IMG/VR virus record: IMGVR_UViG_3300020577_006051
Coordinates: 1 to 26,244 of that record
Reading direction: 5' to 3' (one strand)
From: a virus
Taxonomy: Duplodnaviria > Heunggongvirae > Uroviricota > Caudoviricetes
Length of the DNA stretch: 26,244 bases
Under the pieces are notes generated by a model that worked only from the letters and a program-made list of their open reading frames with translations, did no database searches and had not been told where the DNA came from. Position 1 is the stretch's first letter, and each line of letters begins with the position of its first letter. Positions 3,001 to 26,244 of the stretch are shown here, one piece after another. Position numbers and translations under genes: made by a program.

Positions 3001-4414
3001 CTTCATTAGTTGGAAACTTTAAGATTGTGTTTAAATACAGTTGCGAATTGTCTGTTTCGCGCATCGAAGATACGCGAATAGTTTCAGCATCGTGAGCAAC
3101 AGGATAGATCAGGATATTCTTAGACGTGTTTGTGAAACGAGCTTTAAAGCTAACAGATTGAGCATTGATAGCGATGATGATCTCTGCAACCGTAGCAGCA
3201 GATGGGTTTAAGAAGTTGGCATTTGTGAAGAAGATAGTTTCCTCAGCGCCATCGACTTCAACACGCAAGAAAGATCCTTCTTTAACTAAGAAAGGCCCTT
3301 CTGCTACGTTCACTACTTGCGGACGTGGAAGTGGATAGTTTGCGAGTTGTAAGAATTCTTCTGTGCCGTTAGCATCCGACAACAGTTTGTCAACGGACTG
3401 ACCAGTATACGAAGGTTCAAATCCTGAACCATCGTCGATGTAAAGAATGGAAGGATCACCAACCTTAACTGGTTCAGTCAAGATTGCAGATGCAACTTGT
3501 TTGCTATCATCAGGGTCAGAAACGCCGATAACAGCCTCAACGATAGAAGGAGCTGTACCACGAGCTAGAGTGATCGCATACGATTTGATGCGGTTACGAA
3601 GCTCTGTATCTGTTTCGATATCTTGACCGTTAGAGAACGAAGATGTGTTAGTAACTGCGGCACCAACAAAGGGTGGACTATCAAATTGAGTGATTGTGTT
3701 AATTGGAGCATTACCAATTGAACCTGGAACTTGCGCAAGAACTTCAATACCATCAATGAAGTCTTCGCCAGAAGGAATTACAGCGTCACGTAACGTTGTG
3801 TAAATAATTTCAGGGTTTTGATTATTGGCAGGAATCTTAACGGTTGTTCCAGCTGCAATAACATAGTCAGGTTGTCCCTGTGAGTCAATAACTGCATCAG
3901 ATATTAAATGATCTTTTTGAAGAGCAGAAGCCAGTGTGATTGCCGAATATGTAGGAAACACAGTGATGGCTGTATAGCTAATTGGACCTTCAAATGATTC
4001 TGTTCCACGACCTATGTATAGATTTCCAGTTGGAGACCAACCATCAGTATTATTAACATACAAAGTAGTCTGTCCTGCGATTGGAGCAGGTTTAATAACA
4101 TAAAGACCAGTTGAACGTTTTGTGATAGATGTATTTTTAAAAGTTACAAGACCAGAAGCACGAATTGCTGGACGACGAGATAAACCATAGTCTCCTGCAC
4201 GAGCATCAAGATCATTGTTCTTAACTGCATCAATGTTAAGCAATTCAAGAACATTAAGGATAGCAACGTTATTCTCATAGTCATTAGATGCTGCAGCTTC
4301 AAGTAAGCTTAATAAGGTCGAACCTGCGTTAATGTCGTTAAGCGAGGTCTCAGCCTTAACTTTGCGGATCATATCGCCAAGTAGCTGGTTAAAACTTTTA
4401 ATTTCAATGGCCAT
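2..4414 (-). CDS. Giant baseplate J/gp6-like wedge protein with long repeat-containing extension (3'-partial, >=1471 aa)
   Basis: Not in the ORF track because no stop lies inside the window. ATG at 4414 (MAIEIKSFNQLLGDMIRKVKAETSLNDINAGSTLLSLLEAAA...), and the same frame is still open at base 2 (...ELITNQAAIDIFP). Carries the baseplate-J motif GQDIETDTELRNRIKSYAITLARGT (~3550-3630) and follows the gp25-like gene. Confidence 0.9.
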   Translation of the reverse strand, partial: MAIEIKSFNQLLGDMIRKVKAETSLNDINAGSTLLSLLEAAASNDYENNVAILNVLELLNIDAVKNNDLDARAGDYGLSRRPAIRASGLVTFKNTSITKRSTGLYVIKPAPIAGQTTLYVNNTDGWSPTGNLYIGRGTESFEGPISYTAITVFPTYSAITLASALQKDHLISDAVIDSQGQPDYVIAAGTTVKIPANNQNPEIIYTTLRDAVIPSGEDFIDGIEVLAQVPGSIGNAPINTITQFDSPPFVGAAVTNTSSFSNGQDIETDTELRNRIKSYAITLARGTAPSIVEAVIGVSDPDDSKQVASAILTEPVKVGDPSILYIDDGSGFEPSYTGQSVDKLLSDANGTEEFLQLANYPLPRPQVVNVAEGPFLVKEGSFLRVEVDGAEETIFFTNANFLNPSAATVAEIIIAINAQSVSFKARFTNTSKNILIYPVAHDAETIRVSSMRETDNSQLYLNTILKFPTNEASYIALYQNSTRLREKEKGAEIETISYASWNITTPGNIIIAVDGTPSQDRTFQISDFAGASSFASLTLDDWIAAFNAKFAGLTATATPSQTMIISSNKSGALSKVEIVGGSYLNKWFTDQELISVGQTAQFELNRQTGHLRVLTEIAIGDSITAGVEDAKGFVVSSTTTSGNYNVSNDSAGRPSEMIIVIDSKSCVQRSLPLLIGGTLTVSSPATSVMRITSSSLDTFAGLLPGDYVYISQRTSAWLSNDNTGIFKIFSKGNHLTAGSDSYIDMYNVNVVPEGPITILDTADVKAFATDGYPQIWRGSYTNNPPAEPITGIVDSVNAEILGVKAQVFKSNSIKITSATETNGSIALPVVNGNLATIFTETAVQQNGNAPHIANRTSDKTLVGLFKRTVPTSANIWLDRHVYSDMKGKLSADAVPDQPPYSGTYSEVVQSTGNLTAANVGFDDYISFTRGNNDNQFRTIKAKIVTDSVGTQQGTNRTVLHHITNDEYQLIRPAQISSEDSIVFVMDKDNVTKTIDIPMSRTGRINSGSGGGTFIPTNTEFSADDSDNEPGIDFSNVTVWGTAINKTDFSDYAVWMRARNWYASGGLGSSDGKLLIRSAQYGPNGEKLRFNFTHPSIPDQDPTTFFVNTPSFTTYSYVFGSGPARPIAITSGDTIAVAGPYPDDSTNFPNGTPSTGNYYDYTFSGGNFATVTVGDVLSINDGSGISSFNRGQFRVAAKTGNTVRVFNADASATSPGAPEVTTVTTIADVLGTPTEYEIDTVADVGGSLHQTYFIVYDTAGSVAIWYDVNNTGSAPPPHGADRAIKIASVVTGDSAVDVATKTGAVVQFDAAFTTGVIGNQITLTNNQNGNLSAGSAGTSGFAVSTTAGTNNVSLTGKYFIIYDDVGSVAVWFDIGNVGTPEPFHGADRSIRVFSANPGDSAATIASAVVAQVNPDTKFIASSLSNVVTITRAFDGNVGATIAGTSGFSVSDVNGSLSTAELITNQAAIDIFP
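44..679 (-). repeat. Two 106-aa (318-nt period) repeat domains inside the baseplate protein
   Basis: cgatcagcaccatg occurs at 255 and 573 (318 nt apart). Units SLHQTYFIVYDTAGSVAIWYD...HGADR...GDSA...AGTSGFAVS and SLTGKYFIIYDDVGSVAVWFD...HGADR...GDSA...AGTSGFSVS align without gaps at 47/106 identical residues (hand count). Confidence 0.92.
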
Positions 4415-4462
4415 GTGTTAAGTTCCCTTTGTTACTTATATTTTACTATAAGAATTGCAATT

Positions 4463-6061
4463 TTACACATTTATTGTGAAGCTTATAGGAATAACTTTGT
4501 CGCCACCACCGGCTAGTCTGACGGCCATGTTGATCATAATTATGTTAGCACCACCAGGCAAATCATTTCTATATCTTACGTCCAGGCTCTCGATGCGCTC
4601 GAAGCGTTCATCTGCTTCAATTTGGCTATTGAGAGAGTCTGTTATCTTCGTGATGATGTTATTTATGTCGTTGTTTTTGTTGCCTAATACGTTAACTAAT
4701 CCATATGTTGGGTGATAACGTAAAGAACCAAATTCTGTTGATAGCTTGAATTTGATGGCTTGAATTGCATTATCGAGACCGAAGCTAATTTTAAGATCGC
4801 CATTGGGTGCCAAGATAAGATCGCCACTATCATCTACAGCTAGATCAATCTTAGCTTGTTTCTCATCTTCTGCTGCATTAGCTAAGAACCAAGGAACTTC
4901 TTCCTTACGAGAGTTAGTAAGTGGATCATTTGTGGGAATAAGTACATAGAACGAACTATTTATCGTGTTTGGCTTGTAGACTCGAATACTAGCATTATCG
5001 GAAATCTGGAATTTTGACAGATCAGGATCACCGTCAACTTCGATTATGATTTCATCAGAAACTGGAATCTGTCTGATGTTGATAATCTTGCGTTGACTAG
5101 GAATAACTTCTGTGTCAGACTTTAAGAAGATGATCTGATTGATGTAAACTTTATCAATATTTAAGTTACCGTTTACATCTGTTCCATTTAAATTAATTAG
5201 TGTTCCGCTAGCATTTGACTTCAGTGGGATCTGTTCTCCAACCTCATCGATGTAAGGTGGCTTCAAGCCGTTAGCAATGGCAATATCAATCCAGCGATTG
5301 GCGTCACCAAGATACTTAACTGCCAATTTTTCAAGATCTTCGCCATAGTTCATTTTAACCAATCGACCAGAACTGTACTGACCAATATTTACGTCAGGAT
5401 TATTTGCGTTGGCACGAGCTAAAGCAAATGGGTCAATAGCTACATCAGTTGCGAAGTAGTTGGCCAAAATAAAATCACATGTCCTGATACCTTGTTGCAG
5501 GGTCAGGATATAGTTTGTATCGACGATCGTAGCGTTAACTTGGGCAGGTATAGATGAACGATTAAAGGTTTGATTATAATCGGTATCCTGCAGTGCAATC
5601 GTGTCCGTATAACGATCCCTATAATCTCTGATCGTGTTCTTAATTCTAATGAAGTCGTTCTTAGAGAAGAGGTTAACGCGTGTAATTGCATTGCCGACAA
5701 TCTTCTCTTCTTCGTTGTTTAATCGAATGCTTGCGATCTCGATTACGTCAAAAACAGAATAGAAGCGATTGACAACAAAACTGTCACTCAAAGGGTTTAC
5801 TTTACTGCCTGAGTTTCTTTGAGACTCAATAAAGGAAGTGAAATCGTTGATCTGTTCGTTTAAAAAATCTGGATTTTGATAACTTGGTACTTTAGCTAAT
5901 ATATCTGGCTTAATGTATTCCCAGCTTAACTTGAAGTAGTTCCAACGAAGTGGAAGAATAGACGGTACATCAGAAAGCAGCAACGTATCACCACTCTGAA
6001 CTTTTAACCATAAGTTAAGATCAGATAATGCTTTGTAGGAGTCTGCTAAAGTAGACGTCAT
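4463..6061 (-). CDS. Baseplate wedge protein: helical N-terminus + LysM (P2 gpX/T4 gp53-like) + C-terminal gp25/gpW-like domain
   Basis: LysM-like segment RLVKMNYGEDLEKLAVKYLGDANRWIDIAIANGLKPPY; gp25-like end DNAIQAIKFKLSTEFGSLRYHPTYG...QIEADERFERIESLDVRY; lies directly before baseplate J. Confidence 0.8.
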   Translation of the reverse strand: MTSTLADSYKALSDLNLWLKVQSGDTLLLSDVPSILPLRWNYFKLSWEYIKPDILAKVPSYQNPDFLNEQINDFTSFIESQRNSGSKVNPLSDSFVVNRFYSVFDVIEIASIRLNNEEEKIVGNAITRVNLFSKNDFIRIKNTIRDYRDRYTDTIALQDTDYNQTFNRSSIPAQVNATIVDTNYILTLQQGIRTCDFILANYFATDVAIDPFALARANANNPDVNIGQYSSGRLVKMNYGEDLEKLAVKYLGDANRWIDIAIANGLKPPYIDEVGEQIPLKSNASGTLINLNGTDVNGNLNIDKVYINQIIFLKSDTEVIPSQRKIINIRQIPVSDEIIIEVDGDPDLSKFQISDNASIRVYKPNTINSSFYVLIPTNDPLTNSRKEEVPWFLANAAEDEKQAKIDLAVDDSGDLILAPNGDLKISFGLDNAIQAIKFKLSTEFGSLRYHPTYGLVNVLGNKNNDINNIITKITDSLNSQIEADERFERIESLDVRYRNDLPGGANIIMINMAVRLAGGGDKVIPISFTINV

Positions 6062-6062
6062 A

Positions 6063-7025
6063 TTACCTTCCTAGTACGTTTATTCCGCCGGTTGCAGCAG
6101 CAATAACACTCTTAGCACGATTTGTTTCTTTTTTAATATTACCTAAAATAGACGAACCATCTACACCATTTAGACCAAGATCTGCTAAACGTTTCTTTTG
6201 ATCATCTGCAATATCATTTTTTAAACCAGTTAAAGCGTATCCACGCATGCTGATTGAATAGTAATAAAGCATCGGATTGTCAGCAGAACGTTTCATATTG
6301 AAATTACGAATCACAACGTTGTACTGGTTACCATCTTTATAATTAAAGAATATAAGAGGATGCTTGGTGCGTTCTTTCTTGTCTTTGTTATTAGCTACAT
6401 CATTCTTATATTTCAATAGAGTTTTATATAAAGTATGAAAAGCTGCATAACCAGAATTTTTATTTTCAAAACCAGGAGTTTCCTTTATTGAACCGTTAAC
6501 TAGTTCATTAACAGAATTTTTTAGTTGATTAAGTGCACCTAAAGTCTTAGAAAAGAATCCGCCAGCACTGATTGTACTTTGTAGAGTAACAGAACTTCTT
6601 CCAGAGTTTTTACCTTCTAATGCTTTTTTGGCTTCTGTTAGTTGCTGTTCTGCATCATTAGCGCCAGTCGTTACAAACGCTTCTCCATATTGAGAGGCTA
6701 TACCTGTATTACCTTCAATGTTGATATCAAAGTAACGAACATCGGAGTGTTGCTCAACTGTACCATAGAGAGTAGGAATTATATTCGTTGCAAAATGAGT
6801 AGTAATATTAAGATTACTTGGTGAGATAGGTAAAAATATACTAAATGTTGTGCCGTTTGCCATATTAATACGAAAACCGTATGGTTTTGCAGTAAACCAA
6901 TTACCAGCAAAAGTGTCATAAAAGGTAGCATCGTCTTTCTTTTTTTCAATGGCTGTAGGACTAGTTTTACTTGCAAATAAATCTGTTATACTACTGCTTA
7001 AACCTAAATCCGGTGGAAACCCCAT
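6063..7025 (-). CDS. Putative tail-tube initiator / baseplate-tube junction protein (P2 gpU, T4 gp48/gp54-like)
   Basis: FSIFLPISPSNLNITTHFATNIIPTLYGTVEQH...FDINIEGNTG and NQYNVVIRNFNMKRSADNPMLYYYSISMRG resemble tube-fold initiator patterns; lies between spike and wedge; TAA-t-ATG junctions on both sides. Confidence 0.6.
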   Translation of the reverse strand: MGFPPDLGLSSSITDLFASKTSPTAIEKKKDDATFYDTFAGNWFTAKPYGFRINMANGTTFSIFLPISPSNLNITTHFATNIIPTLYGTVEQHSDVRYFDINIEGNTGIASQYGEAFVTTGANDAEQQLTEAKKALEGKNSGRSSVTLQSTISAGGFFSKTLGALNQLKNSVNELVNGSIKETPGFENKNSGYAAFHTLYKTLLKYKNDVANNKDKKERTKHPLIFFNYKDGNQYNVVIRNFNMKRSADNPMLYYYSISMRGYALTGLKNDIADDQKKRLADLGLNGVDGSSILGNIKKETNRAKSVIAAATGGINVLGR

Positions 7026-7026
7026 A

Positions 7027-8025
7027 TTATAAATCTCCCTTAATAGATTCTAACTTAGATTTGATTGACATTACCTGCCCCCACTGTGGAGTGGCTGACA
7101 AAGGTGCACAATTACCGACTGGTGAAATAGTTGTAATCATACCTAATGCATCAATCAGTTTACCAAGTTGATCTAGAAGTTCTGTACCGTCAGTGCCAAT
7201 GGCAACTTTCTTGGCTTTCATCTTGGCATTGCCAGTTGCTTCTATTGAAAATTCTTTAGTTTTTATTTTGATTTCAGTCTTAGAGTCGATGTCGATCTTT
7301 TCACATTTAAGAGAATAACTTTTTTTGTTTTTGTCCATTATTAAACTGATTTCACCAATTTTGATAGTAAAAATACCAGCTTTTTTGTCTAATTTAATTG
7401 ACTGAGGATCAGAACTTGCTTTATCATTTAGTTCCCAGCTACCGGTCTTATCAAACTTAACAAATGTACCGCCAACCTCTTCGTCGTACTCAGGGGCAAC
7501 GATGGATGATGTAGCTTGCCTCTTAAGCTCTGCAATATTGGTTGGTATACCTTTAAAGGTTAAGGTATATTCACCATCTTTATTAATTGCTGTTTCAACA
7601 CCATTGAAACAGCTTTTATAAGCAATTCCATCTTCTTTTTTAAGTGTATTTTTTCTAGCTGGATGTTTAGCAAAAGCAACAATAATACCAGACATATATC
7701 TGCCATTTTGCAACATAACATAAACTCGATCACCATATCTTGTGTCTTGCGCTGCTGGTGTATCTTTGTTTGGAGAGTATGTATCTAATGAATATTCTTC
7801 ATAATTTGTAATGCCACCAAATTTTACAGCTAATTTACACCAAACTAAGGATACATCTGTGTCGTTAAAGACTTCTACTAAATATCTATTTTCATTAAAT
7901 TGTTTATTAAATTCACTGCGAATCACTGTGCCAATTCTTATAAATGGATCTTTTTTAGATACGCTACTAAATGAGCTTTCATTAAGCCAAATTGAGCTGT
8001 CTTTTATTACATCAAATTCATTCAT
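7027..8025 (-). CDS. Baseplate central spike (gp5/gpV/VgrG-C-like)
   Basis: N-terminal OB-fold pattern (IRIGTV...RYLVEV...GDRVYVMLQNGRYMSGIIVAF), then short beta-strand repeats (QSIKLDKKAGIFTIKI...IDIDSKTEIKIKTKEFSIEATG); follows the hub with an ATGA overlap. Confidence 0.8.
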   Translation of the reverse strand: MNEFDVIKDSSIWLNESSFSSVSKKDPFIRIGTVIRSEFNKQFNENRYLVEVFNDTDVSLVWCKLAVKFGGITNYEEYSLDTYSPNKDTPAAQDTRYGDRVYVMLQNGRYMSGIIVAFAKHPARKNTLKKEDGIAYKSCFNGVETAINKDGEYTLTFKGIPTNIAELKRQATSSIVAPEYDEEVGGTFVKFDKTGSWELNDKASSDPQSIKLDKKAGIFTIKIGEISLIMDKNKKSYSLKCEKIDIDSKTEIKIKTKEFSIEATGNAKMKAKKVAIGTDGTELLDQLGKLIDALGMITTISPVGNCAPLSATPQWGQVMSIKSKLESIKGDL

Positions 8026-9650
8026 GTTATTTTACTCTTTATAAAAACGACATCACTGTGTGGACTATTTGGATTATTTGCTTGTTGATCGATTGCACCA
8101 TTGTCAGAATTTTCTGTAATTAAGTTGCCATTCTTGTCAGTAAATATTCCTCTAACAAAGTTAATTGTCGTAGTATAAGCCTTAGCTCCTTCATTATTTA
8201 TGCTCATATTATGACTTACATTTTCGATATGGCACAAACAATAACCCTGCAACTCTTCTAAAAAAACAGAAGAATCAATCTCCAAGTTTGTTCCTACAGG
8301 TATATAAGAATCAACACCAACCAATGTAATTGTTCCATTAAGCATTTTATGTGTGTCAAAATACCAAGAGCGCATAAGGGCTGTCCACCCTTTAAAGTCA
8401 ACCCAAGTTGAATTATTTTTTTGCGATGCTGAAAAAACACTTGCCGGATAAGCATCTGTATTAACTATTAATGGTCTAAAACCTTCTCTTTTAAAAGAAG
8501 CAATATCAAACGTCGACAATGTGTCCTTAATTATTGTCTCTATATTTGGATCTTCAATAAAATTTGGTTTTATTTCTATATAGTTATATTTATCTAACCA
8601 ATTTGTTCCGGCGTTTATGTTTATTATGTTTCTTTTTTCTATATATGTTTTTGGTAAAAAAGTAAAAGGCGATACTAATTTTTCAAAACCACTAATATTT
8701 TTACTTTCTTCATAAGCAGATGATTTTGGCACTGCAAATGGTTTAATTCTATTGAATAGTGTAAACTTCATTCTGTCGTTGTAAAAAGTGAGTTCATTAA
8801 AACATTCATTCAATATTGGATTAGAAACACTAACTATTGCTTGTAAGAATGTATTAGTCCCTTGCAGCGTAAAAGGATTTATCAGTGTGTAGGATTCGTT
8901 AATTTCTTTGTATGCTTCTTTAAGCGATAGTTTTCCGGTTTTTAAATCGATAGAATTATTTAAAGATGTTGTCGACAGATCTAGAAAACTTCTCATTTCA
9001 GGTGGGATATCTATTTCGTACGTTGCTTTTGCTAAAACGTTGATATCGTTTTGTATATTTTCATAATTAATAGATCTACCCATAATTTTTAAGTATTTTG
9101 CTATATTACTAGCAGTTGTAGATAGTGTGCTTCCACCGTGATTATCAAATAGAGTTTGAAAAATAGCTTCTGCTGCGTCATTTTTTAAATCTTTTCTATC
9201 TCGTTGTCCAGCTAAATTTGTATTTACAAATAGTATGTTATTAAAAATGTGTCCCCAATCTACTCCAGAAACCAAATAATTAACATTTTTTTCACCGGTG
9301 TCAGAAATAGAAGAACTAACTCTAACAGAATTTATTTTTCCTATCATTTTTAATGTTCTTGAATTTGCGGTTTGTATTTCTTTTTGCGATATTGGGTCAT
9401 TGGATATCAATATCGCACACCAGCTCCCCGCAATAAGATCTTTAATCCAGTCTCTATTTGGAGCTAAAACAAATTGAAATTGCCCCTCTGGATCAGATTT
9501 TGATTTTTGAGTCTGTATGGATATAATTTCATCTTTTAAAACTAAGGCGCGTGATGTGCCTTCTACATATTTATTATTGGCTGCGCCTAACCTATCTACG
9601 TAGTTCCAAACAATTATGGCGCTATGTGGTGTTTTAATTTGAAAACTCAA
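8022..9650 (-). CDS. Baseplate hub protein (gp27/gpD-like)
   Basis: Directly after the tape measure; IISIQTQKSKSDPEGQFQFVL N-terminus and LNGTITLVG...IPVGTNL...CHIENVSHNMS...YTTTINFVRG C-terminus are typical of hubs. TTG start overlapping the TMP stop (TTGA). Confidence 0.75.
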   Translation of the reverse strand: MSFQIKTPHSAIIVWNYVDRLGAANNKYVEGTSRALVLKDEIISIQTQKSKSDPEGQFQFVLAPNRDWIKDLIAGSWCAILISNDPISQKEIQTANSRTLKMIGKINSVRVSSSISDTGEKNVNYLVSGVDWGHIFNNILFVNTNLAGQRDRKDLKNDAAEAIFQTLFDNHGGSTLSTTASNIAKYLKIMGRSINYENIQNDINVLAKATYEIDIPPEMRSFLDLSTTSLNNSIDLKTGKLSLKEAYKEINESYTLINPFTLQGTNTFLQAIVSVSNPILNECFNELTFYNDRMKFTLFNRIKPFAVPKSSAYEESKNISGFEKLVSPFTFLPKTYIEKRNIININAGTNWLDKYNYIEIKPNFIEDPNIETIIKDTLSTFDIASFKREGFRPLIVNTDAYPASVFSASQKNNSTWVDFKGWTALMRSWYFDTHKMLNGTITLVGVDSYIPVGTNLEIDSSVFLEELQGYCLCHIENVSHNMSINNEGAKAYTTTINFVRGIFTDKNGNLITENSDNGAIDQQANNPNSPHSDVVFIKSKIT

Positions 9651-22558: not shown

Positions 22559-23377
22559 TTATGTACCTGCTCCTGCAAATTTTTCTCCGGATCCAACCAT
22601 GAAATCGCGTTTCACGAGGATCTGCATCGGTAACCGCTTAGCTTGTTTTACCCCATTAACCATTTGTTGTGTGATTCTAAGTTCACGTAAAGATTGAACT
22701 ACTACGTAAACAGGGTGGGCAAAATAGCTAAATGTGATTGTTTCACCAACATCGCGATCAGCGTCGTAGAAAGGTTCTTTTCCTGGGATCCATTGAATGG
22801 CACCCTCAGGAGTAATGTTGAAGTCGACGCCGGTTTCGTAGAAGCGTTGAACACCGTCGCTGATTGAAGTAGCGTACTCGATACTGGTGATAGGATAACG
22901 TAGCTCCTGAAGGCCTCCTGGACGAGGTTCATACTCTTTCATCTCCCACAGACGAACTTCGAAATCTGGCATCTCTAGTCGATCATAAGTATTAAAGTCT
23001 GCTTGAGTTCCGTCTGGATATTCAGTTGGAAGGGTCATAACTGCAGAACCAACTTCCCAGATACCGTGAGCTTCGAAAGTCTTTTCAATGGAGTTGCCAG
23101 CGAACACGCCCCAGATTTCTTTCTCACCGTAGTAAAGAATTCCTGAGTCATCGCAGAATTCACAGTCAGGTTGGTGAGCATTAGTGTTCAATGATTGAAC
23201 GTTAGGGCAAGGAACAGCTTTGCGATGGATACATCTGATACCGCGCTGTTGAAGCAACTGATCAAAGCTTTCGCCTCTGATACTAGGATCAGGAATCCAA
23301 ACTGGCATAGGTGATGGACCAGAGGTAACACTCTGCGCTGGAGGTGGATATACTTGGTCTGGTTTCTTCATGCTCAT
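22559..23377 (-). CDS. Head closure / neck protein (T4 gp14-like position) with Cys motif
   Basis: Start corrected to ATG 23377 (GAGGA SD). FDQLLQQRG..C.H....CP...CEFCDDSG.LY and FNTYDRL match the head-closure pattern recalled for large myoviruses. Confidence 0.65.
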   Translation of the reverse strand: MSMKKPDQVYPPPAQSVTSGPSPMPVWIPDPSIRGESFDQLLQQRGIRCIHRKAVPCPNVQSLNTNAHQPDCEFCDDSGILYYGEKEIWGVFAGNSIEKTFEAHGIWEVGSAVMTLPTEYPDGTQADFNTYDRLEMPDFEVRLWEMKEYEPRPGGLQELRYPITSIEYATSISDGVQRFYETGVDFNITPEGAIQWIPGKEPFYDADRDVGETITFSYFAHPVYVVVQSLRELRITQQMVNGVKQAKRLPMQILVKRDFMVGSGEKFAGAGT

Positions 23378-23400
23378 ACTGTGGTCCTCACTATATTGCA

Positions 23401-23448
23401 ATTATACCAGAATGTCACCCGCGCGTTGAATCAGATATCTTGTATAAT
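23401..23448. promoter_or_regulatory. Back-to-back divergent GTATAAT elements
   Basis: Minus-strand element at 23401-23407 (23 nt before the neck gene) and plus-strand element at 23442-23448 (20 nt before the 4-Cys gene). Confidence 0.55.
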
Positions 23449-23468: not shown

Positions 23469-23744
23469 ATGAATGATATCGAAATTTTAGAAAAACTCAT
23501 AGAACAAGAAGGCGAGTGTAGTAATTTTGCCAACGACGAGATATGTGCTAAATGTCCGATGTCTAAACTAAAGATCAGACCTGATGGATCTTTCTACGCC
23601 TGCGTTGATGCGATGGATATATCCGATATTATTATAAATGCAGGAGTAACCGAAGATATTAACGCAATCATAAATAAACGTTACTTAGAAGCAGCGAAGC
23701 GAATTCTCGCAGATAAACGTATAGAAGAGATGTTGGAGGATTGA
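23469..23744 (+). CDS. 4-Cys hypothetical protein A
   Basis: ILEKLIEQEGEC-x8-C-x2-CP-x15-C; GTATAAT 20 nt upstream; paralogue of the next gene. Confidence 0.75.
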   Translation: MNDIEILEKLIEQEGECSNFANDEICAKCPMSKLKIRPDGSFYACVDAMDISDIIINAGVTEDINAIINKRYLEAAKRILADKRIEEMLED

Positions 23745-23992
23745 TGTTGTCATCTTCGGATCGCAAGATCCTAGAGCAGATCATAGAAGTTGAAGGTCAA
23801 TGTCTGCTCTCTCAAAGATGTCATCAATGTCCCTTCCGTGCTATGTGCCTACCAGAATTTCTAAATGTAAGTCCACTCTCCCACTCACAGCGTAAGAATA
23901 TGGCGATGGATGTCATTTCGTACAATGACATATTAGAAGATGAAACTGCATTGGAATCCATCAATGAATCGCGAAACAAATCAAAGATCTAA
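23744..23992 (+). CDS. 4-Cys hypothetical protein B
   Basis: ILEQIIEVEGQC-x5-C-x2-CP-x4-C; TGATG overlap and GGAGG SD support the ATG at 23744. Confidence 0.75.
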   Translation: MLSSSDRKILEQIIEVEGQCLLSQRCHQCPFRAMCLPEFLNVSPLSHSQRKNMAMDVISYNDILEDETALESINESRNKSKI

Positions 23993-24058: not shown

Positions 24059-24220
24059 ATGCAACAAAAAGATCTATCTAGTGCTACGGAAAATAAAGAA
24101 GCCATCAAAACGATGGCCCTCATGAATCTTCACTATCTTGTAAATGTCTTACTTTACGATCACAAGTTGAATCACTTCTCCAACAAGTACTCGGCAGGAA
24201 TGCAGTCGAACTTCTTGTAA
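24059..24220 (+). CDS. Small hypothetical protein (53 aa)
   Basis: GGAGG SD then ATG; MQQKDLSSATENKEAIKTMALMNLHYLVNVLLYDHKLNHFSNKYSAGMQSNFL. Below the ORF-track cutoff; its end overlaps the convergent lipoprotein gene by 49 nt. Confidence 0.5.
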   Translation: MQQKDLSSATENKEAIKTMALMNLHYLVNVLLYDHKLNHFSNKYSAGMQSNFL

Positions 24221-24465
24221 GTTGGATCGTACTTGGTGCAATCAACAACACCGCAAACCAATCCTTGCGTTCCCATGTGCTTTGTCTCGACCAAGCCTTC
24301 TTCTGTAGGAATGATGGTATCGATGTTGTACACTTTCAAAGTGCACTGTTTCGTCTTCTCGCTTCCAACTAACTGATACTCACGATGAACGTTAACGTCG
24401 CTGACGCTACGTACACTAACACAACTGACCAAACCTAACGCAAGCAATGTAAAAGCAACCTTCAT
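24172..24465 (-). CDS. Putative lipoprotein with four extra cysteines
   Basis: MKVAFTLLALGLVSC: basic start, hydrophobic core, lipobox L-V-S-C; AAGGAG SD; GTATAAT upstream. Confidence 0.75.
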   Translation of the reverse strand: MKVAFTLLALGLVSCVSVRSVSDVNVHREYQLVGSEKTKQCTLKVYNIDTIIPTEEGLVETKHMGTQGLVCGVVDCTKYDPTYKKFDCIPAEYLLEK

Positions 24466-24496: not shown

Positions 24497-24503
24497 ATTA
24501 TAC
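24497..24503 (-). promoter_or_regulatory. -10-type element GTATAAT upstream of the lipoprotein
   Basis: 31 nt before the ATG. Confidence 0.5.
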
Positions 24504-24581
24504 TAAGATTTCTTTTTTGAGCTAAGAGGGGCTATTTGACATTTTAATCTAACTTAGTAACTTAGCTAACTTTTTACTAAG

Positions 24582-24728
24582 TCATTGAACTTTATCACTA
24601 TCATTCTTACTATAATCATACCAATCTGTCGTTCCAAAAGACATCAGCCAAATAGAATAAAACAAAGCCTGTGAGATGCCAAGCTGCATAAGTAGATAAC
24701 CTAATCTGTATTGTACTTGCCTGTTCAT
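24582..24728 (-). CDS. Mini-ORF array member (48 aa)
   Basis: Hand-translated MNRQVQYRLGYLLMQLGISQALFYSIWLMSFGTTDWYDYSKNDSDKVQ; ATGA overlap with the upstream gene. Confidence 0.65.
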   Translation of the reverse strand: MNRQVQYRLGYLLMQLGISQALFYSIWLMSFGTTDWYDYSKNDSDKVQ

Positions 24729-24907
24729 CTTGGCCAAGACACAATCCAGTTACCACGGTAGTGAGGTTTTTGTTTTGCATCAATTACTGCAGTTACGTTC
24801 GCTCTCCAGAAGAAAGCTGGACGACAAATTTCCAAACGTCGAAGAAACTTAGAAAGTTCGACACATGCGTTCTTGCTGTTTTCGCTGATGAACATGTACT
24901 TATTCAA
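24725..24907 (-). CDS. Mini-ORF array member (60 aa)
   Basis: Motif CVELSKFLRRLEI; 8-nt overlap with the upstream stop. Confidence 0.7.
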   Translation of the reverse strand: MNKYMFISENSKNACVELSKFLRRLEICRPAFFWRANVTAVIDAKQKPHYRGNWIVSWPR

Positions 24908-25094
24908 AGATCACCACCATGCAGTTAGCGTAAGGTTTCTCCATCTCTGGAAGTTCACCCATGAGATAAGCTTTGTTGGTGTGAACACCGTACTGCTTAT
25001 AGGCACCGAACGCAGACTTTATCTTTGCTACTTTTAATGTAGAAAGAAACTTAAGTAGCGGATAGAGATGTGAGTGTTCGTGTGGAATTATCAT
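24900..25094 (-). CDS. Mini-ORF array member (64 aa)
   Basis: Start corrected to ATG 25094 (GAGG SD); motif LYPLLKFLSTLKV; C-terminal KPYAN. Confidence 0.7.
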   Translation of the reverse strand: MIIPHEHSHLYPLLKFLSTLKVAKIKSAFGAYKQYGVHTNKAYLMGELPEMEKPYANCMVVIFE

Positions 25095-25096
25095 CG

Positions 25097-25246
25097 TTAC
25101 CTCGAGTACCATAGAATCAGATCGTACATGTCAGGGTTGTTCGCGTACGGCTTGCAGTCATAGTGCATCCTATACTTGTCATTCACCTTTAGTAAGTCGA
25201 GTACATACAGCAAGTCATACATCGCCATCGCTTGTTCAATATCCAC
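25097..25246 (-). CDS. Mini-ORF array member (49 aa)
   Basis: GTG start after GGAG/AAGGA; MDIEQAMAMYDLLYVLDLLKVNDKYRMHYDCKPYANNPDMYDLILWYSR. Confidence 0.7.
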   Translation of the reverse strand: MDIEQAMAMYDLLYVLDLLKVNDKYRMHYDCKPYANNPDMYDLILWYSR

Positions 25247-25278
25247 TTGCTTCCTTCTCCAAACCCAAAAAGGGCCTA

Positions 25279-25482
25279 TTATTCTAAATAATAATCTGCA
25301 AACTCAAAATCTATTGCTGTCGTCTCATCTATGATCTCAAACTTAACTAAAATATTAAATAGATTCGAGTAGCTGTAGGTTGCAGAGTTAACAATTTTAG
25401 TAGCACTAACATGTCGAGTTTTTTCTTTTATACATTCTGTTTCACCTAACAAACGCAACAGATAAAGTTTCCAGAGTATCAT
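25279..25482 (-). CDS. Mini-ORF array member (67 aa, two motif copies)
   Basis: Start corrected to ATG 25482 (ATGA overlap); ILWKLYLLRLLGE and YSNLFNILVKFEI. Confidence 0.65.
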   Translation of the reverse strand: MILWKLYLLRLLGETECIKEKTRHVSATKIVNSATYSYSNLFNILVKFEIIDETTAIDFEFADYYLE

Positions 25483-25694
25483 GTTCTGTTCCACGCTCTT
25501 AGAGAGTCGATCACATGCTTGATATGCTGATCCCACATATCTTTATCGATGTGACCAACAGTTAGTATGTAATCTTCCCAAGTATTGTCATTAACGTCGA
25601 AGTCGTGATCGCGAATGTTGAGAGCCCAAAGTAATTCGATCAGGTCGCAAAGCGGAGCCTGGCATTTTCTATACTGCTCACCGATGTTATACAT
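25479..25694 (-). CDS. Mini-ORF array member (71 aa)
   Basis: Motif LCDLIELLWALNI; 8-nt overlap with the upstream gene. Confidence 0.7.
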   Translation of the reverse strand: MYNIGEQYRKCQAPLCDLIELLWALNIRDHDFDVNDNTWEDYILTVGHIDKDMWDQHIKHVIDSLRAWNRT

Positions 25695-25839
25695 ACCAGA
25701 TCTCTACTTTCTCGCTGCCAACAGATATGTCAACTACCGATGTTGCTTCAAGATTAATCAGAAGCCAGAACAAATCTAACATAGCTGTTTTGTCGTCGTA
25801 ACTTAACGGCTCAAGTGTTTCAAATGTATATCTTACCAT
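25687..25839 (-). CDS. Mini-ORF array member (50 aa)
   Basis: Hand-translated MVRYTFETLEPLSYDDKTAMLDLFWLLINLEATSVVDISVGSEKVEIWYV. Confidence 0.65.
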   Translation of the reverse strand: MVRYTFETLEPLSYDDKTAMLDLFWLLINLEATSVVDISVGSEKVEIWYV

Positions 25840-25976
25840 CTGAAATGCCCAGATCTATGTATGCACATATCGTGACAGATTTCAGCATTGATACTTACAG
25901 CTCGAAGTCTGTGTAGTGTAAATAGCAAATGATGATACCTTATATAAATAACTTTTCTTTCATCATTTAAACTCAT
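25833..25976 (-). CDS. Mini-ORF array member (47 aa)
   Basis: GAGGA SD; MSLNDERKVIYIRYHHLLFTLHRLRAVSINAEICHDMCIHRSGHFRW. Confidence 0.6.
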   Translation of the reverse strand: MSLNDERKVIYIRYHHLLFTLHRLRAVSINAEICHDMCIHRSGHFRW

Positions 25977-26139
25977 AGTCTTCCTCACTGTCTGTTCGAA
26001 GACGATTCACGTACTCAGTCCAAGGGATGGAGATCAACTCGTAGTTGTGCTTGATGTTGAGCTTGTCGAAGAACCGGAAGAACAGGTCTTCCAATGCCCC
26101 ATGATATTCTAGGTAAGTTTCGAAGTGGTTGATACCCAA
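25963..26139 (-). CDS. Mini-ORF array member (58 aa), resembles the N-terminus of T7 endonuclease I
   Basis: TTG start after GAGG; MGINHFETYLEYHGALEDLFFRFFDKLNIKHNYELISIPWTEYVNRLRTDSEEDYEFK. Confidence 0.6.
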   Translation of the reverse strand: MGINHFETYLEYHGALEDLFFRFFDKLNIKHNYELISIPWTEYVNRLRTDSEEDYEFK

Positions 26140-26146
26140 GCTAACC

Positions 26147-26242
26147 TCAGAAGTTGTCGTCTAATATTTTTGCTTTATCTAATAGATGACTGAATGCTTC
26201 GACTCGACGTGGCCGGTCGAGAAGTTCGAACCTACGGATCAG
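26147..26242 (-). CDS. 5'-partial small hypothetical protein (array continues beyond the window)
   Basis: Open frame from the window edge ...LIRRFELLDRPRRVEAFSHLLDKAKILDDNF-TGA, ending 7 nt before the next start. Confidence 0.45.
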   Translation of the reverse strand: MIRRFELLDRPRRVEAFSHLLDKAKILDDNF

Positions 26243-26244
26243 AG

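Follow-up and report, generated by a model that had tools for sequence, protein, structure and literature searches.

A coupled array of small, diverse genes sharing a helix motif in an uncultured large myovirus

The minus strand of this phage DNA is filled from position 24582 onwards with very short ORFs, which raises the question of whether they are genuine genes, whether they belong to one family and what such a family could do for the phage. The window, that is the whole stretch of 26,244 nucleotides that was analysed, comprises bases 1-26244 of a 96.8-kb IMG/VR myovirus contig, and the numbering of contig and window is identical. On the contig, the minus-strand array extends over 24582-27408 and consists of 17 translationally coupled ORFs encoding 45-71 aa, 16 of which carry a common motif. 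The part inside the window is the promoter-distal end of this 17-gene coupled operon of an uncultured large myovirus.

Gene layout and coding evidence

A preliminary description, made from the sequence of the window, had reported ten minus-strand ORFs, of which nine are complete (47-71 aa) and one is truncated by the window end. All of them are present as described and are given here with the rest of the array; motif residues refer to the 13-residue motif defined in the next section.

24582-24728, minus strand: m01, 48 aa, last gene of the array; motif at residues 8-20; ATGA overlap with m02
24725-24895, minus strand: m02, 56 aa; motif at residues 13-25
24900-25094, minus strand: m03, 64 aa; motif at residues 12-24; K-P-Y-A-N close to the C-terminus
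25097-25246, minus strand: m04, 49 aa; GTG start with the ribosome-binding site GGAGAAGGAAG; motif at residues 11-23; second copy of K-P-Y-A-N
25279-25482, minus strand: m05, 67 aa; motif at residues 40-52, preceded by a degenerate copy at 3-13
25479-25694, minus strand: m06, 71 aa; motif at residues 17-29; two W-x-[DE]-x elements further downstream
25687-25839, minus strand: m07, 50 aa; motif at residues 22-34
25833-25976, minus strand: m08, 47 aa; ATG start with an AGGA ribosome-binding site; motif at residues 16-28, the weakest copy
25963-26139, minus strand: m09, 58 aa; TTG start behind GAGG; motif at residues 19-31
26147-26244, minus strand: m10, 3' part in the window; complete gene at 26147-26287 on the contig
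Beyond the window, up to 27408 on the contig, minus strand: m11-m17, rest of the array

When the best-supported starts are taken, neighbouring ORFs in the window either overlap, by ATGA or by 7-14 nt, or are separated by spacers of 2-7 nt. The sole real gap in this part of the array measures 32 nt (25247-25278), and the start of m04 comes after it. Five of the ORFs had been noted as absent from the ORF track, which is consistent with five ORFs being shorter than 60 aa. Gene callers routinely drop microproteins below this length. Since m05 carries an additional, degenerate copy ahead of the motif, it looks like two fused units.

The coding potential of the array was assessed by codon usage and by natural variation. 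Codon usage was best in the called frame for 14 of the 17 ORFs, with a total of +226 bits over the best alternative frame. Variants with 90-99 % identity were found on contigs of four other wastewater runs, and the best-supported 40 of 219 differences were tabulated. The 39 natural SNPs listed among these are distributed over codon positions 3, 1 and 2 as 29, 9 and 1 (chi-square p = 1e-7), and 25 of the 39 are synonymous compared to 27.7 % expected (p = 2e-6). Among the listed SNPs, all three in m03 and 11 of the 12 in m05 are synonymous. Codon usage and substitution pattern indicate that the array ORFs are real genes under purifying selection, and such selection on ORFs of fewer than 60 aa is visible here from natural population variation alone. 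The middle of m02 (24766-24880) could not be aligned at 85 % in other strains (joint from 1684 to 1800 in L001, loose ends in X5), where it was either replaced or removed. The one genuine metatranscriptome (X16) covered only positions 28-513 of L001, which are flanking genes outside the array, and a dataset labelled as RNA-Seq (X2) is probably DNA; neither was taken as expression evidence.

The only promoter candidate for the array is G-T-A-T-A-A-A-T-A at 27440-27448; GTATAAT itself is absent from the strand of the array, both within the window's array and upstream of it. A promoter of the T4-late type was rejected because TATAAATA is not enriched in the genome, with 8 occurrences found and 14.7 expected. 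Behind the last gene of the array, no terminator-like site was detected, and the scan total was at chance level. A 9-bp inverted repeat at 24552-24582, considered as a terminator, folds no better than shuffles (z = -0.8). A search of Rfam found nothing.

The shared helix motif and its predicted structure

In the genome of the window, the motif reads phi-x-x-L-phi-x-phi-L-x-x-[LFM]-[GEKND]-[IVA] (16 of the 17 ORFs). It starts at residue 8-40, which leaves 7-39 residues ahead of it, and about half of the members have a W-x-[DE]-[YF] element 9-16 residues past the motif block. The 13-residue segments aligned in the preliminary description were chosen again by a blind Gibbs motif finder and are placed in one column block by MAFFT; the segment of m08 (25833-25976) was recovered by the motif finder only at a width of 10. 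For all 17 ORFs, the motif score reached z = 8.7 against shuffles and, within the same genome, z = 6.6 against fragments of large proteins and z = 7.6 against real small ORFs. Taken alone, the nine ORFs described first are marginal: compared with sets of genuine small ORFs from this genome they reach only z = 2.5, and one of these sets scored higher. The distinction from controls is clear for the complete array. When the 819 ORFs of the genome were ranked by a profile built from the relatives alone, 8 of the 17 array members were among the first 16 (p = 6e-11). Since leucine in the motif is encoded by all six codons, its conservation is at the protein level and is not that of a DNA repeat.

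Pairwise protein similarity among the array members equals the background (mean z 0.36), and in a leave-one-out test with full-length profiles m04 alone of the 17 members came out on top, the median rank being about 8 of 786. For this reason, common descent rests on the short motif in combination with synteny. Taken together, the motif, the relatives' profile, codon usage and the SNP evidence bear out the initial proposal of one motif-defined family of real genes. The word K-P-Y-A-N, which had been read as a sign of old duplication, is real and is encoded by differing codons in m03 and m04, but 6.5 % (nine peptides) to 21 % (17 peptides) of shuffles also contain a shared 5-mer. Compared to large ORFs, the array proteins are enriched in W (2.1x), Y (1.8x) and H (2.0x). 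This enrichment agrees with the aromatic part of the initial observation of strand-like segments often ending in aromatics, but neither of the two AlphaFold models (m07 and m09) has a strand. Outside the array, a SET-domain protein at 57405-57866 ends in the motif-like M-L-K-K-L-G-I-K. This end was attributed to chance because the strict motif is nearly confined to the array in the complete relative described below.

In the AlphaFold model of m09 (mean pLDDT 77), helices at residues 5-26, 33-36 and 40-52 form a predicted helical hairpin, and the model of m07 has one confident helix at residues 14-29 with a low-confidence tail. In both models, the motif forms the C-terminal part of the confident helix, and this helix, 16-22 residues in length, ends immediately ahead of L-[N/E]-[I/A]. 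The two models share this helix only, which speaks against the one small alpha-beta scaffold that had been proposed. The only conserved feature of the family is a predicted amphipathic helix of about 12 residues with a capping turn, and the tails are variable.

At the DNA level, the region has no similarity to any of 50,697 phage records in megablast and blastn searches. No consistent match was obtained with Pfam and PHROGs for the nine window ORFs, with Pfam for 42 relatives or with PHROGs for 54 members, and profile and single-sequence searches of PDB sequences returned nothing. A profile search of 5.8 billion proteins yielded two matches, both on contigs of this clade, and a profile search of 1.84 billion representatives yielded three, namely m06 itself and two proteins of 80 aa. 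Single-protein searches of large protein databases returned nothing for m09 and only the query itself for m06. Foldseek of the m09 model against PDB and BFVD gave 0 matches, and the best Z of 4.6 from a wide VIA-align search with this model is generic for helical hairpins. The literature search produced no match to the array. The family makes up about 3 % of a 167-kb phage genome, yet Pfam, PHROGs and sequence searches at the billion scale do not reveal it.

Arrays in related phages and their turnover

Arrays were found at the syntenic locus in at least eight related uncultured large phages, with L002, L003, L005, L008, L009 and L015 named as having them at the same place, and show a sharper motif, L-L-x-K-L-G-[VI]. 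The array lies upstream of a gp6.4-like virion gene, and it has the same orientation as the neck/tail operon that directly follows it. Its neighbours encode a lipoprotein, two conserved small Cys-rich proteins at 23469-23992 and an HNH nuclease, and the order of the locus is array, lipoprotein (in the window and L002), Cys-rich ORFs on the opposite strand and virion gene. The structural genes of this phage are distantly SPO1/Mx1-like. In Myxococcus phage Mx1, the nearest cultured phage with a sheath 34 % identical, the corresponding locus lacks an array, and no relatives closer than 72 % virion-protein identity were found in IMG/VR or the JGI metagenomes.

The copy number ranges from a few to about 36 among the related phages, with 7 to about 36 copies in the arrays at the syntenic position, in line with the variation in array length anticipated in the preliminary description. 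In a complete relative of 167.5 kb, a single 6-kb array accounts for 29 of the 32 strict-motif ORFs. Probable extra copies of the motif are scattered among plus-strand non-structural genes. The form of the motif depends on the genome: it is K-L-G-V in L009, K-L-G-I in L002, x-L-x-L in L015 and L-[EKN]-[IV] in the genome of the window, with m01 as the sole window member retaining the relatives' L-G-I form. Across members, the helix can be located at either end of the protein, and in 17 members of L009 the protein ends 1-3 residues past the motif, which is therefore C-terminal. In L009, GTATAAT precedes both sub-arrays, as it precedes the virion gene, but it is uninformative on timing because it is also found ahead of the HNH nuclease and other non-structural genes. 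In class A of L009, the motif doubles as the Shine-Dalgarno sequence of the next gene, and the final helix codons of the sister genome, C-T-N G-G-A G-T-N, also act as the Shine-Dalgarno sequence of the gene that follows. For the window, such a reading of the motif was rejected, as no start codon follows it.

No homologue of any array member was found across genomes at E < 0.05. The genes flanking the arrays are 56-72 % identical between genomes, and the neighbouring Cys-rich proteins (83-91 aa) match across genomes at 1e-8 to 1e-25. Among near-identical strains, the cassettes m02, m15 and m16-m17 are unalignable, having been replaced or deleted. The proposed diversification of cassettes is thereby confirmed in the sense that whole cassettes differ among such strains. 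The idea of a recent gene accordion had to be abandoned, as the array is without DNA repeats and its pairwise protein similarity is at background. Birth and death combined with cassette replacement, which is shown in part by these strains, would be too fast for orthologues to survive between genomes. Judged by sequence comparison, the array is an old, diversified multigene family that is clade-specific, fast-evolving and so far undescribed.

Possible functions and alternative explanations

The reading that we consider probable is a birth-and-death microprotein family built on one common helix, whose members may act as small effectors. The helix would be the common module, whether it docks on a partner common to all members, mediates oligomerisation or forms the structural core, and the variable remainder would supply specificity. 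The array would then represent a library of such effectors for host takeover or counter-defence. It would work like the T-even internal-protein loci, with a short conserved address and diverse bodies, without being related to them. A more specific version is tentative and somewhat doubtful: in each phage, 17 to about 36 microproteins would dock on one common hub by a genome-specific 'address' helix, and their hypervariable tails would form a combinatorial anti-defence arsenal. One possible hub is the capsid interior or scaffold, in which case the effectors would be injected as a cocktail; another is a single protein of host or phage. Helix and partner would co-evolve, and this would explain why the motif is uniform within a genome and different between genomes, with no other similarity. 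In the sister genome, one repeat unit would hold both the peptide address and the coupling signal.

The capsid option leads to an alternative in which the array encodes head-packaged, injected internal proteins, with the helix as a capsid or scaffold tag and the bodies as anti-restriction effectors. The array is located upstream of the neck/tail operon and co-oriented with it, the sub-arrays of L009 and the virion gene are preceded by the same GTATAAT, a helix at either protein end suits a tag, and the T-even internal proteins are a diverse defence set in which only the targeting sequence is conserved (PMC3012670). However, the motif is not at the extreme N-terminus but follows 7-39 residues, no (L/I)-x-E cleavage consensus comes after it, with Gly in the relatives where the window has Glu, and probable extra copies occur among plus-strand non-structural genes. 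Furthermore, GTATAAT is not specific to virion genes and says nothing on timing, and about 36 cargo species per virion would be unprecedented. Such internal proteins are therefore unlikely. It is quite unlikely that the array consists of unrelated ORFan microgenes with a convergent helix, on the grounds that any 50-aa protein needs an amphipathic helix. Pairwise similarity at background, the weak leave-one-out test and the z of 2.5 for nine ORFs alone would fit this explanation, but small ORFs and large-protein fragments of the same genome give no such motif (z 6.6-7.6), and the profile from the relatives alone enriches the array (p = 6e-11). Likewise, the concentration of 29 of 32 strict-motif ORFs in the array of the complete relative and the presence of the same helix cap in every genome, in a genome-specific form, argue against convergence.

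Three further explanations concern the biochemical role of the proteins. The relatives' L-x-K-L-G-I-[KR]-S-A resembles the helix-Gly-[IV]-Ser turn of HTH proteins, and members of L002 and L003 as well as m01 resemble HTH turns, which could point to a set of regulators composed of minimal nucleic-acid-binding modules (helix-turn-helix or HeH/SAP/Rho_N-like). We consider this unlikely. No HTH, SAP, HeH or Rho_N match was found for the nine window ORFs (E <= 1) or, in Pfam, for 42 relatives (E <= 5), and PDB sequences searched with the A1 and A2 alignment profiles gave no such match either. In addition, the modelled motif helix of 16-22 residues is much longer than an HTH helix, and the 17 members of L009 that end 1-3 residues past the motif have no recognition helix. 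A short conserved helix with a hypervariable remainder in dozens of tandem copies is also reminiscent of RiPP-like precursors, in which the helix would be the leader or follower for one maturase and the variable part the core; the conserved neighbouring Cys-rich protein at 23469-23744 is SPASM-like, with a sub-threshold 14.8 bits at a cut-off of 21.5. A search for radical-SAM-type enzymes found no Radical_SAM/SPASM gene in the contig (G000) or the complete 167.5-kb relative (G001); a host enzyme could still act as maturase. As there is also no cleavage site of the Gly-Gly type and no adjacent transporter or protease gene, and the tails are rich in W, Y and H rather than Cys, Ser and Thr, this origin is highly improbable. 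The suggestion that the proteins act as decoys or inhibitors of nucleases and stem from the helix-strand element of LAGLIDADG or PD-(D/E)xK enzymes is hardly credible. One of the 42 relatives matches LAGLIDADG_3 at a sub-threshold E = 0.0076, and K-L-G-V-I-D loosely resembles L-A-G-L-I-D, but none of the nine window ORFs (Pfam and PHROGs; Pfam E <= 1) matches a nuclease family, and none of the 54 aligned members matches one in PHROGs. The position after the cap, corresponding to the catalytic one, has no conserved D or E, and the models lack strands. PDB sequence searches at E <= 10 were without T7 endonuclease I or any other nuclease, and phmmer of m09 (58 aa) against all PDB sequences at E <= 10 found no endonuclease. 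The proteins are also far too small for both nuclease folds: the LAGLIDADG fold is alpha-beta-beta-alpha-beta-beta-alpha with about 100 or more residues, whereas the array proteins have 45-71 aa and, in the models, helices only.

Several known systems resemble the array in part. The T-even internal proteins are highly diverse defence proteins sharing only a conserved targeting sequence (PMC3012670). IPI, IPII, IPIII and the polymorphic IP loci of T-even phages (Repoila et al. 1994, as cited in PMC3012670) are like the array in comprising small, highly diverse phage proteins with one short shared peptide; they are thought to be arms-race effectors, and their loci are polymorphic between close relatives. 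The capsid targeting sequence (CTS) of T4 occupies the first 10 or so residues and is followed by a protease site, whereas the array proteins have an internal or C-terminal capped helix of 12 residues without a cleavage consensus. T4 has few internal-protein genes compared to 17 to about 36 copies in one coupled operon, and the array has no sequence relation to these proteins. Another comparison is with gene accordions, which serve as counter-defence in the case of poxvirus K3L. In T4, amplification of this kind under toxIN selection is presented as counter-defence in a preprint (bioRxiv 10.1101/2022.04.14.488369). In both cases, as for the array, a change in the tandem copy number of small viral genes is proposed to act against host defence, but accordions are recent, near-identical DNA repeats, unlike the repeat-free array with its background protein similarity. 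The host-takeover module of SPO1 (genes 37-60) consists of about two dozen very small genes. Likewise, these tiny genes form a block in the genome of a large myovirus and have a presumed role in redirecting its host, but they are mutually unrelated and lie in the terminal redundancy under early promoters, whereas the array has a shared motif and lies beside the neck/tail operon. Prochlorosin RiPP precursors are encoded by many tandem or dispersed small genes with a conserved recognition segment and a hypervariable remainder. The array shares with them one conserved segment and a hypervariable rest across many small genes, but no maturase of the radical-SAM type was found in the phage, a cleavage motif is absent, the composition of the tails is different and the helix can be N- or C-terminal.

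Arms-race effectors that share a docking module would be expected to show this pattern, in which a short helix stays conserved and the bodies are fully turned over. If docking is its function, the helix would provide a handle for the pull-down of the partner, and the tails would amount to a naturally occurring collection of small binders or inhibitors. If the helix is only a folding core, the array would be a clear case of microprotein divergence in which one element was kept.

The array genes and their surroundings

The window makes up bases 1-26244 of a 96,785-bp IMG/VR viral contig with an estimated completeness of 57 %. On the minus strand, its large genes code for the sheath, baseplate and virion proteins of a contractile-tail module. 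In the sheath, identity reaches 34 % with Myxococcus phage Mx1 and about 25 % with SPO1-like phages, and the virion protein adjoining the array (22559-23401) is similar to SPO1 gp6.4. Near-identical DNA occurs in metagenomes of wastewater, activated sludge and other aquatic sites from several studies.

All nine complete minus-strand ORFs and the partial tenth reported in the preliminary description were found. With starts picked by ribosome-binding site and coupling, the nine encode 48, 56, 64, 49, 67, 71, 50, 47 and 58 AA. Chaining by ATGA or 7-14-nt overlaps was seen as described, but 2-7-nt spacers and one 32-nt gap (25247-25278) also occur. The array runs past the window end to contig position 27408 and totals 17 ORFs (m01-m17), with a divergently transcribed HNH gene about 100 bp beyond.

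Features around the array (contig coordinates)
23469-23744, plus strand: Cys-rich small protein, 91 AA, sub-threshold SPASM-like match (14.8 bits vs. a cut-off of 21.5)
23741-23992, plus strand: Cys-rich small protein, 83 AA, C-x2-C-x5-C
24172-24465, minus strand: predicted lipoprotein, 97 AA, signal peptide with L-V-S-C lipobox, immediately downstream of the array
27440-27448, minus strand: G-T-A-T-A-A-A-T-A, facing the array, in the 100-bp divergent region before the HNH gene
27508-27514, plus strand: GTATAAT, facing the HNH gene, in the same divergent region

The last two elements are candidate back-to-back promoters. A separate GTATAAT element (24497-24503) belongs to the lipoprotein gene, which is weakly homologous to 8205-8534 of L002, a locus of a related phage (E 7.5e-4). 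The Cys-rich genes are tandem, overlapping and paralogous, on the strand opposite to the array.

A codon-usage model trained on 73 ORFs of at least 150 AA preferred the called frame in 14 of the 17 array ORFs and, summed over the array, rated it 226 bits better than any other. Contigs of four other runs, placed on the region at an identity of at least 85 %, included variants 90-99 % identical. Among the best-supported 40 of 219 differences, on which all SNP counts rest, 39 each lay inside a single array ORF, distributed over codon positions 3, 1 and 2 as 29, 9 and 1 (chi-square p = 1e-7); 25 of these 39 were synonymous, whereas 27.7 % would be expected in the absence of selection (p = 2e-6). 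They cover m03, m05, m06, m07, m09 and m10, some shorter than 60 AA. Four of the best-supported 40 fell within motif segments, three synonymous and one Phe-to-Leu. The array ORFs are coupled, and codon usage and variation show them to be real genes under selection.

The common helix motif

Given only the 17 peptides, a Gibbs sampler recovered the segments aligned in the preliminary description. The motif reads phi-x-x-L-phi-x-phi-L-x-x-[LFM]-[GEKND]-[IVA] and occurs in 16 of 17 ORFs. At width 13, the log-likelihood score was 314 bits, compared to 278 +/- 4 bits for per-sequence shuffles (z 8.7), 276 +/- 6 bits for length-matched pieces of large proteins from the genome (z 6.6) and 273 +/- 5.5 bits for 17-member sets of real small ORFs from the plus-strand region (z 7.6). 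Against these control small ORFs, the motif stands out for the full array, but the nine ORFs originally described reach only z 2.5, so that the signal inside the window is marginal. Since all six Leu codons occur at the Leu positions and DNA repeats are absent from the array, the conservation is at the protein level. Besides the motif, MAFFT aligned a weaker element, W-x-[DE]-[YF]; by pattern scan, about half of the members have it 9-16 residues past the motif block. The common K-P-Y-A-N word is real, but chance gives such a word in 6.5-21 % of shuffles. m05 (25279-25482), m06 and m10 each carry two motif-like helices and look like fusions of two units.

The AlphaFold2 model of m09, run with a 54-sequence family alignment, has helices at 5-26, 33-36 and 40-52 (mean pLDDT 77), and that of m07 has a single confident helix at 14-29 (pLDDT 88-90), its tail being of low confidence. 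Each model has the motif as the C-terminal portion of a helix that stops right before L-[N/E]-[I/A]; Gly is the commonest residue at this stop among relatives. From this, we infer that the motif end resembles a helix C-cap with a hydrophobic staple after it. The models show the motif as a helix, and neither contains a strand. As fold searches also returned nothing specific, the common element is a helix rather than the single alpha/beta fold proposed earlier.

Beyond the motif, similarity is at background level. Smith-Waterman comparisons within the array gave a mean z of 0.36, with 5 of 136 pairs above 3, and leave-one-out full-length profiles ranked the left-out member first just once (median rank about 8 of 786). 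Profiles run against 5.8 and 1.84 billion proteins returned two clade members, the query m06 and two untraced 80-AA proteins, and the family was not found in Pfam, PHROGs or PDB sequences. No counterpart of any array member was detectable in any relative. The family is held together by helix, synteny and operon architecture.

Related loci and turnover

Relatives were sought with the neighbouring virion protein, yielding 8 loci in IMG/VR and 13 in JGI metagenomes at 52-72 % identity. They carry small-ORF arrays with a much sharper motif upstream of the virion gene, on the same strand.

Motif consensus and approximate array copy number by locus
Window contig: 17 copies
L002: about 10-13 copies, x-x-L-L-x-L-L-x-K-L-G-I, [KR]-S-A often next
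L005: 7 copies, K-L-L-x-F-L-x-K-L-G-V
L008: at least 9 copies, x-x-L-x-x-L-L-x-K-L-G-V
L009: about 36 copies, two forms, x-I-x-L-L-x-K-L-G-V-I-D and L-x-M-x-x-L-L-x-K-L-G-V
L015: about 21 copies, x-F-x-x-x-L-x-x-L-x-L

Gene order follows the window: array, lipoprotein (window and L002), opposite-strand Cys-rich small ORFs, virion gene. The lipoprotein (window, L002) and Cys-rich proteins are recognisably homologous across loci, the latter being kept in virtually every relative (E 1e-8 to 1e-25), unlike array members. The genome containing L009 (G001) is complete, 167.5 kb long with terminal repeats, and 29 of its 32 strict-motif ORFs are confined to one 6-kb block. At the corresponding place in Myxococcus phage Mx1, an array of this kind is absent.

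A profile built from 42 relatives only and run on the 819 ORFs of the window's genome placed 8 of the 17 array ORFs among the top 16 (hypergeometric p = 6e-11). The remaining top matches are small plus-strand ORFs in mini-clusters at 60125-60568, 52271-52838, 34308-34615 and 68395-68733. Such ORFs, also at 44681-44866, lie outside the window amid non-structural genes, carry the motif and often a downstream Trp, and are probably dispersed family members. A SET-domain methyltransferase at 57405-57866 on the plus strand (Pfam SET, E 1e-12) ends in a motif-like M-L-K-K-L-G-I-K, probably by coincidence. Within the relatives' arrays, L002 encodes a cytochrome c-like protein of 113 AA bearing the haem-binding signature C-x-x-C-H (7867-8208), and L002 (7207-7695) and L003 (3397-3882) encode secreted proteins of 161-162 AA with a signal peptide, which look like small outer-membrane beta-barrels.

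Between near-identical strains, 11 of the 12 listed differences in m05 are synonymous, and some cassettes stop aligning.

Segments not aligning with other wastewater strains (flanks 95-99 % identical)
24765-24881 (1684-1800 of L001, the array region of the window's contig): middle of m02
26926-27011 (L001 3845-3930): part of m15
27060-27413 (L001 3979-4332): m16-m17

At these segments the strain contigs either carry on with dissimilar sequence or join across them. Cassettes are thus exchanged or lost within a short time, and their replacement or deletion is polymorphic in nature. Between genomes only the helix survives, in a form that is uniform within each genome and different from genome to genome. 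Recent duplication alone cannot explain this uniformity because the rest of the proteins lack similarity; it would need gene conversion limited to the motif, or selection by a factor that all members in one phage have in common. In L009 class A (17 genes; 3541-6500, G001 144489-147448), the helix is C-terminal and proteins end 1-3 residues past it. L-G-V is encoded by C-T-N G-G-A G-T-N and followed by A-T-A-T-G-A, forming the next gene's Shine-Dalgarno and overlapping start. Peptide motif and coupling signal are there combined in one repeat unit. This role of the motif codons does not hold in the window array.

Possible functions

The array ORFs make up a family that spans the clade, is defined by its motif and turns over extremely fast. 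Its helix may be a common module that serves for docking or oligomerisation or as a minimal folding core, and the variable tails may provide the working surfaces of small effectors directed at the host. In function, the T-even internal-protein loci are the closest analogy; their products are described as highly diverse defence proteins with only a conserved targeting sequence in common (PMC3012670).

Less probably than small host-directed effectors, the array members could be packaged internal proteins, convergent ORFans, HTH/HeH-like binders, RiPP precursors or nuclease decoys. Packaging would fit the T-even analogy, but the defining features of the T-even capsid targeting sequence are lacking in array members. 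In L009, GTATAAT elements lie before both sub-arrays and the virion gene; as they also precede non-structural genes in the window's genome, they have no bearing on expression timing. The idea of nuclease decoys or inhibitors, raised in the preliminary description, found no support in family searches of the window ORFs. In a separate search of PDB sequences, m09 as a mimic of the T7 endonuclease I arm was also without support.

The original observation is thus confirmed and enlarged, and its interpretation was right in part. A new multigene family of microproteins, from an uncultured phage clade, is well supported. Its behaviour recalls known hypervariable effector loci, and its architecture is its own.
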